A stretch of DNA of 64,000 bases from assembly GCF_001677475.2 (NCBI RefSeq), contig NZ_CP015229.1. One strand, 5' to 3'. How positions within the stretch are numbered: position 1 is the stretch's first letter; each line of letters begins with the position of its first letter. A model generated the notes under the pieces. It was not told the DNA's origin. It worked only from the letters and a program-made list of their open reading frames with translations, and did no database searches. Of this stretch, positions 53,903-64,000 are shown piece by piece. The translations under genes and the position numbers were made by a program. This stretch comes from Escherichia coli (lineage in GTDB: Bacteria; Pseudomonadota; Gammaproteobacteria; Enterobacterales; Enterobacteriaceae).

Positions 53903-54094
53903 TTAAAGTCCTGCCGGTATTTCGTTATTATTAGTGTGAGTAGTTTTATCTACCGGATAACAGTTACCGGGAATTTTTTGTTCTGCTGCTGCAGCCATGC
54001 ATTCTTTCATTGAACCGTATAAGCCAGTCACCAGCTCAAGAGATTCGCCGGAAACAAGATAAACTGTCAGAACGAGTGCAAATGTTGTATTCAT
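53903..54094 (-). CDS. ydfD: YdfD-like small membrane (lysis-associated) protein
   Basis: 63 aa starting MNTTFALVLTVYLVSGESLELVTG. It has an ATGA overlap with the dicB homologue, as in the Qin dicBF operon. Confidence 0.75.
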   Translation of the reverse strand: MNTTFALVLTVYLVSGESLELVTGLYGSMKECMAAAAEQKIPGNCYPVDKTTHTNNNEIPAGL

Positions 54095-54279
54095 TGTTTA
54101 TATCCTTTTTGCAGCAGGTCCAGACGAGCCAGCATTGAAGGAATGCATACTTCATTTAACAGGTCCTGCTCGAGTTTTCTCTGCTTAATGGCGTCTTCAA
54201 TAAATGTTTTGTCTCCAGTGATAACGCCAATTTCGAAACGAAGTTCAGACGTGCTGGCATTACATGATAACTTTTCCAT
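54091..54279 (-). CDS. dicB: DicB-like cell-division inhibitor
   Basis: 62 aa from the internal start MEKLSCNASTSELRFEIGVITGDKTFIEDAIKQRKLEQDLLNEVCIPSMLARLDLLQKGYKQ. It shares FEIGV, EDAI and SMLARL blocks with K-12 DicB. An SD GAGGA lies upstream. Confidence 0.8.
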   Translation of the reverse strand: MEKLSCNASTSELRFEIGVITGDKTFIEDAIKQRKLEQDLLNEVCIPSMLARLDLLQKGYKQ

Positions 54280-54449: not shown

Positions 54450-54508
54450 AAAAAAGGGCGGCAGAGCAGTCACGGAGTAAAACTGATACCGCCAAATGTC
54501 ACCAGAAT
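54450..54508 (-). ncRNA. dicF: DicF small RNA (ftsZ-targeting)
   Basis: The minus strand reads attctggtgacatttggcggtatcagttttactccgtgactgctctgccgcccTTTTTT. This is nearly identical to the K-12 DicF sequence I recall, including the terminator hairpin. It lies 170 nt upstream of dicB, as in Qin. Confidence 0.88.
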
Positions 54509-61493: not shown

Positions 61494-61528
61494 TGTCAGG
61501 AGGCCGCCCGAAAGGGCGGTAATGAAAA

Positions 61529-62362
61529 GTGACTGAATTAACCAAAGAGCAATTAATCGAAGAAGCCAAATTAAAAATAGCGATTGCGAAATGCTACCCC
61601 AGTTCAGGGATGGCACGGGTAGAGGGCGAGTTATTCAAAATTGCACTGGCATCGCTGGAAGCAGAACCAATAGGTGCTTTCCACATTGTAGAACAGCAAG
61701 TTGACGGAACAAGTTACTATATCAAGGATGGGGAATGGCCTATTGATACTGGGATTATTGAAGTCTACGCCGCCTCACCGATGACGGTAGTGCTGAACGA
61801 TGTATCTGGACCTCTTGCTCTTGCTTACAAAGAGCTTACACCTGCGATTATGCGCAACCATATCGCTGTATTCGAACGATACGGAATAACCCCAAACGAT
61901 AGCATTACTACAATTCATGCGCTTCGAATTGCGCTGGATGGCATAGAGCGGAGCGACGCCATGCTTCATGGACGTCAGCCATGCCATCAAATTACCGCCT
62001 CAATGGCAAAAGCTATTGCGCTTAAACTTGGTGCCGAACTGAATAACGAAGAAGCAGAGATTTTCGCGGATGGGTATAACACCGCCATGCTTCATGCCGA
62101 AAACTTTCGGGAAAATAAGAATTCGTCAACCAATAATTTTCGGATAACCTCGGAAACGTCAACCAACTCTCCGGCAATCCCTGATGAGGTGTTGTCCGCA
62201 ATCCTGAAGGTCGCCAGGCTTCGTGCAGATTTCGATGCTTCTGAAGGTGACAGGCGAGGTATCGGTGGTTGTCTGGATGAGGCCGAGCAAGAACTTATCG
62301 TTACCATTAACAAATACGCCAGTCAGATCGCAGTAGAAGCGATACAGGGGGCGCACCAATGA
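61529..62362 (+). CDS. Hypothetical phage protein (Ead/Ea22-like region, GTG start)
   Basis: 277-aa ORF. The assignment rests only on its position and general resemblance to lambdoid accessory proteins. Confidence 0.5.
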   Translation: MTELTKEQLIEEAKLKIAIAKCYPSSGMARVEGELFKIALASLEAEPIGAFHIVEQQVDGTSYYIKDGEWPIDTGIIEVYAASPMTVVLNDVSGPLALAYKELTPAIMRNHIAVFERYGITPNDSITTIHALRIALDGIERSDAMLHGRQPCHQITASMAKAIALKLGAELNNEEAEIFADGYNTAMLHAENFRENKNSSTNNFRITSETSTNSPAIPDEVLSAILKVARLRADFDASEGDRRGIGGCLDEAEQELIVTINKYASQIAVEAIQGAHQ

Positions 62363-62471
62363 GCCGGCCCGATGCATTTGCAGGCGTTGCTATAGCTATT
62401 GCTTTTCCAGTATATGTTATTTGTCGGTGGGGGTAAAAACGTTCGCCGGAATTCACACCAAGGGAGGGAAT

Positions 62472-62576
62472 ATGTCGGATGATATTTCACTGGTAATGGA
62501 AGGCGCTCTGGCTGTTATTGCTGTTGTGGGTGTTTACTGCCTGGTTGTGTTTTTGATGGATCGCCTGGGGAACTGA
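62472..62576 (+). CDS. Candidate 34-aa single-TM peptide
   Basis: MSDDISLVMEGALAVIAVVGVYCLVVFLMDRLGN, with a strong SD AGGGAGGGAA upstream. It is below the ORF-track cutoff. Confidence 0.4.
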   Translation: MSDDISLVMEGALAVIAVVGVYCLVVFLMDRLGN

Positions 62577-62711
62577 ATTCATTCCGTATGGGAATTCCCA
62601 TATCGGGCAAAAACGGTTTGCTGTAAAGCGAGAGTTAAGTAGAATTGCTGCGGGTGCTTGAGGCTATCTGCCTCGGGCATGCCGCCGTAAGGCAGACAGA
62701 GAAAAGCCCCA

Positions 62712-62772
62712 GTTAACATTACGCGTCCTGCAAGACGCTTAACATTAATCTGAGGCCATATCTATGACTTGC
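62712..62772 (-). ncRNA. sok: Sok-like antisense RNA (approximate ends)
   Basis: A minus-strand promoter, TTGCCT (62802-62807), 17 nt, TAACCT (62779-62784), would start transcription near 62772, antisense to the mok start. A hairpin gcgtc-ttgcag-gacgc lies at 62722-62737. Confidence 0.4.
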
Positions 62773-62976
62773 ACACGTAGGTTAGCCTCTTACGTGCCGA
62801 AAGGCAAGGAGAAGCAGGCTATGAAGCAGCAAAAGGCGATGTTAATCGCCCTGATCGTCATCTGTTTAACCGTTATAGTGACGGCACTGGTAACGAGGAA
62901 AGACCTCTGCGAGGTACGAATCCGAACCGGCCAGACGGAGGTCGCTGTCTTCACAGCTTACGAACCTGAGGAGTAA
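62764..62976 (+). CDS. mok: Mok-like overlapping reading frame (modulator of hok translation)
   Basis: 70-aa ORF in frame with and containing hok, which is the typical hok/mok arrangement. Confidence 0.5.
   Translation: MTCTRRLASYVPKGKEKQAMKQQKAMLIALIVICLTVIVTALVTRKDLCEVRIRTGQTEVAVFTAYEPEE
62821..62976 (+). CDS. hok: Hok/Gef-family type I toxin (HokD/RelF-like)
   Basis: 51 aa, MKQQKAMLIALIVICLTVIVTALVTRKDLCEVRIRTGQTEVAVFTAYEPEE. It matches my recollection of K-12 HokD. Confidence 0.9.
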   Translation: MKQQKAMLIALIVICLTVIVTALVTRKDLCEVRIRTGQTEVAVFTAYEPEE

Positions 62977-63143
62977 GAGACCTGGCGGGGGAGAAATCCC
63001 TCGCCACCTCTGATGTGTCAGGCTTCCTCAACGCACCCGCACTTAACCCGCTTCGGCGGGTTTTGTTTTTTCTGTGCATTCTGGTTTACAATTCGCACGC
63101 CAGCCTGAACAACTGGCACCTGCTGCGCCAGCAGAGACAACCG

Positions 63144-63422
63144 ATGGCGCACGATACCAAATTACACAATTCTGATGATTCTGCCGTTTTTGCCAGCAGG
63201 CACGGGCTGCGTTCTCACGCATTCAAATATGACTGGTATCAGCACGATCCCTGCACTGAAGAACAGGCCGAATGGCTGATTCATAACTACCGCAGACGTG
63301 GGTATGAGTTTAAGAAAGCCCTCAGTCTCGATTATCGTCACTGGATAATCTACGTCAGACTCCCTTATTCCGAACGCCCGCCGCGTCCATCCCGCACATT
63401 CCAGCAACGGATCTGGAGGTAA
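63144..63422 (+). CDS. Hypothetical phage protein
   Basis: 92 aa from MAHDTKLHNSDD. The ORF-track start at 63015 (GTG) adds an implausible hydrophobic leader that overlaps the hok 3' structure. Confidence 0.5.
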   Translation: MAHDTKLHNSDDSAVFASRHGLRSHAFKYDWYQHDPCTEEQAEWLIHNYRRRGYEFKKALSLDYRHWIIYVRLPYSERPPRPSRTFQQRIWR

Positions 63423-63423
63423 C

Positions 63424-64000
63424 GTGCGGGTATTACTTCGACCTGTTCCGGTGCCGGAACTCGGGCTGGTGGTCCTTAAGCCGGGCCGTGAATCCATGCA
63501 GGTATTTCATAACCCTCGAGTGCTGGTGGAGCCGGAACCGAAAAGCATGCGCGGTCTGCCGTCCGGAGTTGTTCCTGCCGTTCGCCAGCCGCTGGCGGAA
63601 GATAAATCATTGCTGCCATTTTTCAGCGACGAACGGGTGATTCGTGCTGCCGGCGGCGCTGGTGCACTGTCTGACTGGCTCCTGCGTCATGTTAAATCCT
63701 GCCAGTGGCCTCATGGTGACTACCATCACAGTGAAACCGTCATACATCGTTACGGTACCGACGCGATGGTGTTGTGCTGGCACTGCGACAACCAGCTGCG
63801 TGACCAGACCTCAGAATCACTTGAGCAACTTGCTCAACAAAACCTGACAGCATGGATGATTGACGTCATCCGTCACGCAATAAGCGGTGCGCAGGAGCGG
63901 GAATTATCGCTGGCTGAATTATCCTGGTGGGCTGTCTGCAATCAGGTGGCGGACGCACTACCGGAGGTAGTATTACGTCGTTCTCTGGGGTTACGTGCGG
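63424..64000 (+). CDS. DUF968-like (YdfU-like) phage protein, 3'-truncated by the window end (GTG start)
   Basis: An open frame runs from GTG 63424 to the window edge, reading VRVLLRPVPVPELGLVVLKPGRES...CQWPHGDYHHSETVIHRYGTDAMVLCWHCDNQLRD (Cys/His cluster). It is absent from the ORF track because no stop is reached. Confidence 0.65.
   Translation, partial: MRVLLRPVPVPELGLVVLKPGRESMQVFHNPRVLVEPEPKSMRGLPSGVVPAVRQPLAEDKSLLPFFSDERVIRAAGGAGALSDWLLRHVKSCQWPHGDYHHSETVIHRYGTDAMVLCWHCDNQLRDQTSESLEQLAQQNLTAWMIDVIRHAISGAQERELSLAELSWWAVCNQVADALPEVVLRRSLGLRA

Follow-up and report, generated by a model that had tools for sequence, protein, structure and literature searches.

A predicted hokD-type hok/mok/sok type I toxin-antitoxin cassette in an Escherichia coli prophage and the small open reading frames upstream of it

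Background

A closed, untranslatable form of the hok mRNA and the definitions of its elements have been described for the hok/mok/sok (parB) locus of plasmid R1 (PMC9841398). Hok is reported in almost 80% of Enterobacteriaceae genomes and is about fourfold enriched in prophages (bioRxiv 10.1101/2025.08.07.668861), and, hokB excepted, the hok genes of E. coli K-12 are reported to have lost their activity through insertion elements or genomic rearrangement (PMC12214031). Loci of the hok/sok type abound in prophages, where they may contribute to prophage retention or phage defence. The present analysis deals with a 64,000-nucleotide (nt) stretch of E. coli DNA (assembly GCF_001677475.2, contig NZ_CP015229.1; hereafter referred to as the window), in which a hok/mok/sok type I toxin-antitoxin locus, preceded by two small open reading frames (ORFs) of 25 and 34 amino acids (aa), had been proposed in an initial annotation made from the sequence.

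Methods

The region 61500-64000 was read together with the list of ORFs, and Rfam models were scanned against the whole window. The Sok RNA was placed by aligning the window with the K-12 hokC and hokB regions, for which sokC and sokB are annotated, and carrying the coordinates over. Selective constraint was assessed on 110 copies (79 unique 800-nt haplotypes) retrieved from IMG/VR with a wobble-degenerate pattern; the 30 nt of the search pattern were without variation and so added nothing to the substitutions counted, but copies with non-synonymous changes in that stretch would have been excluded from the sample. Constraint is expressed as the ratio of non-synonymous to synonymous polymorphism (pN/pS).

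Results and discussion

Identity and extent of the cassette

Positions 62617-63072 of the window very probably represent a hokD-type hok/mok/sok type I toxin-antitoxin cassette of canonical form and intact structure, residing in an E. coli prophage. All the features named in the initial annotation were found where it had placed them, except that the end of the locus, set there at 63010, lies about 60 nt further, the fold-back inhibitory element (fbi, 63026-63038) and a terminator (63045-63072) putting it at about 63072. The genes, transcripts and promoters of the cassette, with their Shine-Dalgarno (SD) sequences, are as follows.

62617-62645, plus strand: putative hok promoter, with the -35 element TTTGCT/TTGCTG at about 62617-62623 and the -10 element TAGAAT at 62640-62645
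62652-63072, plus strand: predicted full-length hok mRNA of about 421 nt, delimited by the Rfam match, the fold and a 3' terminator-like site
62764-62976, plus strand: mok, 70 aa, an N-terminal extension in frame with hok; SD GAGG at 62752-62755, 8 nt upstream
62821-62976, plus strand: hok toxin gene, 51 aa; SD GGAG at 62808-62811
62696-62772, minus strand: predicted Sok antisense RNA gene of about 77 nt, with coordinates transferred from K-12 sokC/sokB
62779-62807, minus strand: predicted Sok promoter, TTGCCT, a 17-nt spacer and TAACCT (reverse complements of 62802-62807 and 62779-62784, respectively)

The initial annotation equated the toxin with K-12 HokD/RelF, and 51 of 51 residues are indeed identical; it matches Pfam HOK_GEF (PF01848; E = 2.9e-23, 81.6 bits against a cut-off of 22) and PHROG 251, 'MokW-like host killing' (E = 7.7e-33). 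The coding sequence is conserved among the sampled copies, with a pN/pS of 0.46-0.64 (0.46 in the pairwise estimate) and about 3 of the 110 copies disrupted. As a separate observation, hok codon 47 (TAC, Tyr) and the following G, at 62959-62962, form a UACG motif inside UUACGAA. UACG is the motif of A-to-I editing by TadA, which would recode Tyr to Cys, and editing at a low level (6%) has been reported for K-12 hokD (PMC12214031). A hairpin around this codon is not predicted to be stable in isolation.

The comparison with the Rfam hok/sok models that had been proposed as a check yielded an end-to-end match of RF01794 at 62652-62826 on the plus strand (110.6 bits against a gathering score of 59, E = 2.9e-24, model positions 1-157 of 157). 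Though named 'sok', this model matches the hok-sense strand and thus describes the 5' leader of the hok mRNA, including the Sok target, and not the Sok RNA itself. The hok promoter is positioned by homology: its -10 element aligns with TATAAT of K-12 hokC and TAGGAT of hokB and lies 6 nt ahead of the start of the Rfam model.

The 70-aa mok frame upstream of hok is likewise present and has the layout of the annotated mokC of K-12. Its exact sequence occurs on 150 contigs, where it is called, for instance, 'protein hokD' or 'phage maintenance protein', and the part that belongs to mok only has a pN/pS of at least 1 (1.78 in one estimate). The stretch 62757-62775, which takes in codons 2-5 of mok as well as the 5' end by which Sok recognises its target, is the most variable of the whole locus and falls into at least six discrete allele classes among 122 hokD-type loci. 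None of six pairs of prophages sharing a genome was identical at the Sok recognition region and four of the six differed at 8 or more of 27 positions, numbers too small for a conclusion. This variation could correspond to Sok specificity classes that avoid cross-talk or simply to relaxed constraint; the more definite proposal that the classes are specificity variants preventing cross-talk between co-resident hok/sok copies is speculative and is given little credence here.

Antisense RNA

An antisense promoter (TTGCCT-17-TAACCT) with a start near 62772 had been proposed, and the same start was obtained from the alignment with sokC and sokB. The 5' end of the predicted RNA is complementary to the mok SD (GAGG, 62752-62755) and to the mok start codon (62764). 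Folded on the minus strand, Sok forms a long hairpin (-35.2 kcal/mol, z -5.9) followed by CUUUUCUCU, a U-rich tail; this terminator hairpin, shared with the leader, is lengthened by an insertion of 18-20 nt relative to sokC and sokB. Conservation reaches 99% in the -35 stretch (bin 62802-62831, 79 haplotypes), and AGGTTA, the -10 element as read on the plus strand, is retained in nearly all alleles. At the level of sequence, an antisense RNA with its own promoter and terminator hairpin is thus predicted opposite the mok start.

Folding of the hok mRNA

The 421-nt RNA spanning 62652-63072 folds with z = -7.9 and with its 5' and 3' ends paired. The elements recognised in it are listed below.

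62652-62663, plus strand: tac, the 5' end of the hok mRNA, GGGUGCUUGAGG, paired with 63026-63038 in the full-length fold
62706-62710, plus strand: ucb, an anti-SD box, GCCCC, paired with 62752-62756 (mok SD) in the minimum-energy full-length fold
62983-63006, plus strand: hairpin in the 3' untranslated region (UTR), -21.7 kcal/mol, z -5.2
63026-63038, plus strand: fbi, CCUCAACGCACCC, forming a 12-bp helix with tac, with one bulged C
63045-63072, plus strand: predicted intrinsic terminator of the hok mRNA, a 7-bp stem at 63045-63062 and a T run, -13.8 kcal/mol, z -4.1

A disruption of the tac/fbi pairing on alignment with relatives had been named as a result that would speak against the locus; the helix is instead kept in 69 unique related loci (RNAalifold), the only changes being from G-C to G-U and a single C-A mismatch. 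Alternative partners of tac are those to be expected. In truncated folds it pairs with 62671-62683 (a metastable hairpin); a stem of tac with ucb, at 62702-62709, forms when the first 61 nt of the RNA are folded by themselves and is also the structure of the Rfam consensus.

The hairpin at about 62984-63005, which the initial annotation had suggested as the fold-back element, is real and is conserved in the 69 loci, the pair 62988/63001 being G-U, A-U or G-C. Its candidacy for fbi had to be rejected, since the 5' end of the mRNA pairs with 63026-63038. By the scheme described for R1 (PMC9841398), the hairpin at 62983-63006 probably forms the stem-loop at the end of the 3'-processed, active hok mRNA, which it would protect.

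Two further observations concern the untranslated regions. The leader stem pair 62666/62697 covaries: 38 unique relatives have G-C at this place and 23 have A-U. The 3' UTR at 62985-63066 (plus strand) gives a full-length match to the Salmonella prophage small RNA (sRNA) isrK (RF01394), whose score of 26.7 bits (E = 0.0016, calculated for a 1-kb search) stays below the gathering score of 50; it may reflect remote relatedness or merely two hairpins and a U tail, and is treated as a curiosity.

Predicted working of the locus and its probable activity

If the locus is transcribed, its mRNA processed and hok translation coupled to mok as in R1, the following course may be envisaged. A stable hok mRNA of about 420 nt would be produced from a weak promoter and closed by the pairing of tac (62652-62663) with fbi (63026-63038), the mok SD (62752-62755) being sequestered by ucb (62706-62710). 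Slow 3' trimming back to the hairpin at 62983-63006 would remove fbi, upon which the leader would refold and expose the mok SD. The unstable Sok RNA, transcribed on the minus strand from about 62772 to 62696, would pair over the mok SD and start codon, block the translation of mok and of the coupled hok, and mark the duplex of Sok and hok mRNA for RNase III. When the supply of Sok stops, either by loss of the element or by shut-off of its transcription, Hok would be made, the inner membrane depolarised and the cell killed.

Several points weigh against an intact and working cassette. Both the hok and the Sok promoters went undetected in a scan for consensus promoters; the -35 element of hok is weak, and so is the Sok -10 element, TAACCT, which was missed because it agrees with the consensus at only 3 of 6 bases. 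In the minimum-energy folds of RNAs truncated at 63012-63025 the mok SD stays paired and tac lies in a metastable hairpin and not on ucb, and the open, translatable form is not reproduced by thermodynamic folding of the 3'-truncated RNAs; refolding to that form after 3' processing can accordingly only be supposed. The window and seven other loci carry an A.C mismatch at 62666/62697, where relatives have G-C or A-U, which may be taken as a small sign of ongoing compensatory evolution. Finally, the intact chromosomal hokA, hokB and hokC are reported to give neither post-segregational killing nor rifampicin activation (cited in bioRxiv 10.1101/2025.08.07.668861). The description of the locus as a functional post-segregational or abortive-infection module in the initial annotation was, in the light of that report on killing, an overstatement, and post-segregational killing or phage-defence activity is here no more than presumed.

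The main rival explanation draws on the same points, namely the weak match of the promoters to the consensus, the truncated RNA that shows no open form in minimum-energy prediction, and the reported silence of other chromosomal hok loci. It holds that the locus looks intact and is physiologically silent, a passenger that is conserved in prophage mosaics and neither adds to the stability of the prophage nor defends against phages. This is a possibility to be taken seriously, though it is judged the less probable case. The regulatory elements are all kept over the 69 unique loci with the tac/fbi pairing maintained, the toxin is under the constraint described above with few disrupted copies, and hok is enriched in prophages; this pattern is not expected from long-term neutral decay. 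The interpretation as an intact hok/mok/sok cassette is therefore retained as the preferred one.

Distribution and genomic context

A copy of the 441-bp core locus with at least 80% coverage is present in 4007 of the 5426 complete E. coli genomes, at a median of 2 and a maximum of 10 places per genome, and copies were also found on plasmids and in 102 phage records, where the hok gene goes by the names gef homolog, MokW, HokD, host killer protein and phage maintenance protein. The locus is thus a known kind of element in a known place and very common, and it is not claimed as novel.

The nearest relative, in strain 08-00022, is 99.9% identical. The gene order there is racR, a ydaT-like gene, replication genes, DUF551, the 34-aa ORF, hokD, a rem-like gene, DUF968, RusA, DUF1133, lysis genes and terminase, in agreement with the order hokD-rem-ydfU of the K-12 prophage Qin. 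The cassette is located in the nin-like region of a lambdoid prophage of the Rac/Qin-like kind, where the replication genes precede it and the Q-type antiterminator, taken to be the DUF1133 gene, follows. In the window, the ORF immediately 3' of hok, at 63144-63422 (plus strand), has a match (E = 1.9e-37) to PHROG 1212, a family of unknown function; rem stands at this place in K-12 Qin and in the phage records, and a DUF968/ydfU-like gene comes next.

The 34-aa ORF upstream of hok

Two short ORFs precede the cassette. The second of them is the better supported.

62472-62576, plus strand: gene for a 34-aa single-transmembrane micro-protein; SD AGGGAGGG at 62461-62468

The position and the SD given for this ORF in the initial annotation were right, but the ORF is not unannotated as had been stated: RefSeq carries it as WP_001278459.1, a hypothetical protein, and it is annotated as a hypothetical protein in all eight RefSeq genomes inspected. 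The exact 34-aa sequence occurs on at least 1000 contigs.

The ORF is under purifying selection. It measures 105 nt in 110 of 110 copies, with no indels, and its variants comprise 11 synonymous and 10 non-synonymous changes where about 26% synonymous would be expected under neutrality (pN/pS 0.32, P = 0.008). The other two frames over the same stretch have no synonymous excess (1/19 and 4/17). The pairwise Nei-Gojobori pN/pS is 0.19, tighter than the 0.46 of hok.

Evidence of translation comes from a homologue in O157:H7 Sakai, XECs145, which was reported as a translated intergenic gene on the basis of ribosome profiling (Ribo-seq; Huecker et al. 2017, PMC5597208); its product is predicted to lie in the inner membrane, with a single transmembrane helix (PMC5597208). 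Its values in LB are 79 reads per kilobase per million (RPKM) for RNA and 346 RPKM for ribosome footprints, with a ribosome coverage value of 4.35 and a coverage of 0.99 (PMC5597208 S2 Table); as the gene has several copies in Sakai, the reads may be shared among them. Over its final 34 residues, XECs145 agrees with the window ORF except for one substitution (V8A). The published call begins at an upstream start and has 54 aa; the RefSeq annotation and the position of the SD favour the 34-aa form.

The range of the ORF seems to be narrow. A search with a wobble-degenerate DNA pattern of the 34-aa ORF gave no match in a set of one genome per species across 185,579 species, and the same pattern occurs on at least 120 IMG/VR prophage contigs; the ORF therefore appears to be confined to E. 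coli-type prophages. A 270-bp block with both small ORFs is present in 673 of the 5426 E. coli genomes and absent from all 50,697 phage records. The similarity of phages to the window begins at 62561-62633, and the loci of mEp460, VT2-Sakai and PPompW have unrelated genes upstream of hok, which places the small ORFs outside the boundary of the cassette. The 34-aa ORF is, in short, a genuine and already catalogued gene for a small inner-membrane protein. It accompanies hok in about 12% of E. coli genomes and, in some of the prophages, adjoins the cassette without belonging to it. The result ties a RefSeq 'hypothetical protein' to published Ribo-seq evidence.

The 25-aa ORF

62359-62436, plus strand: 25-aa hydrophobic ORF (27 aa in most relatives), whose ATG overlaps the TGA of an upstream 277-aa ORF (ATGA)

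The location and the ATGA coupling described earlier for this ORF were correct, but it bears no clear coding signature. It is never annotated by RefSeq in the eight genomes inspected, and the 27-aa alleles turn up in annotations only now and then, as hypothetical proteins. The explanation slightly favoured here is that it is a chance open frame at the junction of mosaic prophage modules. The pN/pS is 1.08 by segregating sites and 0.65 in the pairwise estimate, with no excess of third-position changes; 10 of the 110 copies have a stop two codons before the end, one has a stop at codon 3, and two to three are frameshifted or disrupted; and the window allele has a Leu-to-Pro change in the hydrophobic core that is unique among the copies. 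Some features speak for a gene instead: the ATGA overlap is conserved although the upstream genes differ, the frame is mostly kept in the sample, even across an in-frame 6-nt indel, and an SD-like AGGAGG stands 8 nt before the ATG in most alleles (AGGGGG in the window). Taken together, the ORF is probably not a conserved gene, its coding status being doubtful and leaning to the negative.

The stretch 62409-62471, made up of the 3' half of this ORF and the spacer to the 34-aa ORF, is almost invariant (92-99% identity to the window in 30-nt bins over the 79 haplotypes), unlike the 5' half of the ORF, which is variable. The sole match of the promoter scan, TTTACC-17-TATACT on the minus strand at 62437-62409, is antisense to the 25-aa ORF; it was discarded as evidence, one match standing against 0.8 expected by chance.

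Relation of the small ORFs to the toxin module

It had been suggested that the two ORFs are additional membrane-active peptides, which would make them toxins or Hok modulators belonging to the toxin module. Both are hydrophobic, hokD lies about 245 nt downstream of the 34-aa ORF in every copy checked, and the 34-aa ORF is constrained, with a homologue translated in uninduced O157 Sakai. The suggestion is nevertheless improbable, given that the hok locus is present in 4007 genomes and the ORF block in only 673, so that most hok loci are without the ORFs. They lie beyond the cassette boundary, with the three phage loci having other genes in their place, and neither ORF gave anything above noise in Pfam, PHROGs, NCBIfam or PADLOC. 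The 25-aa ORF has the pN/pS (0.65-1.1) and nonsense alleles already noted, and the single antisense promoter-like site is at chance level. A narrower version, in which the 34-aa micro-protein (the XECs145 family, found only beside hokD and translated in uninduced lysogens) has a functional link to the cassette, perhaps as a modulator of Hok in the membrane or as an exclusion factor encoded by the prophage, is a conjecture to which only slight weight can be attached. The reading of the 34-aa gene as a neighbour of the cassette is preferred to both.

Other features

62587-62602, no strand: perfect 16-bp palindrome TATGGGAATTCCCATA, downstream of the 34-aa ORF stop and ahead of the -35 element of hok

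A hairpin over this palindrome (62583-62607; -12.8 kcal/mol, z -2.9) is not followed by a T run and is therefore not an obvious terminator; the palindrome TATGGGAATTCCCATA could be a protein-binding site. An exact-seed search for inverted repeats found none. Elsewhere in the window, Rfam matches were obtained for the rne 5' UTR element (4297-4633, minus strand), the SraB sRNA (6494-6662, plus strand) and a full-length DicF sRNA (54456-54507, minus strand), the last lying upstream of a dicB-like ORF at about 54091-54279 (minus strand), as in K-12. The 64-kb window contains no tRNA genes.

Comparison with known systems

The significance of the locus beyond annotation is small, and this copy adds nothing unusual to what is known of prophage hok/sok; its use lies in the precise placing of Sok, tac, fbi and the terminator, elements that gene callers leave out. 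The closest described system, hok/mok/sok (parB) of R1, shares with it a Hok/Gef toxin, an upstream mok and a cis-antisense Sok directed at the mok SD and start, as well as the closing helix of tac and fbi, the ucb on the mok SD, and a 3' hairpin followed by fbi and the terminator. R1 is plasmid-borne, whereas the present locus lies on a prophage in the chromosome. Also counted as differences from R1 are the mok of the window, an in-frame extension of hok as in K-12 mokC, and the 18-20 nt insertion that the leader/Sok hairpin carries relative to sokC/sokB.

The hok loci of lambdoid and Stx phages (gef homolog, MokW/HokW-like, PHROG 251) resemble it in having a hokD-type cassette, with 88-95% DNA identity, upstream of rem and Q, and differ in the genes immediately upstream, the block of the 25-aa and 34-aa ORFs being absent from them. 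With K-12 hokD (relF) of the cryptic prophage Qin, the locus has in common the identical toxin, the 3' UTR and the downstream rem-like and ydfU/DUF968 neighbours. In K-12, the promoter, tac, ucb, the mok start and sok are replaced by relBE. That K-12 hokD has no mok or sok of its own had been stated in the initial annotation and is borne out here, the leader being absent too, as the similarity to K-12 begins only at 62807, 14 nt before the hok ATG; K-12-type genomes align with 62807-63070 only, and relE and relB occupy the position of the leader in MG1655. This agrees with the inactivation of K-12 hok genes other than hokB referred to above (PMC12214031). The window has the ancestral, complete form of the K-12 hokD locus, presenting hokD as it was before relBE took over its leader.

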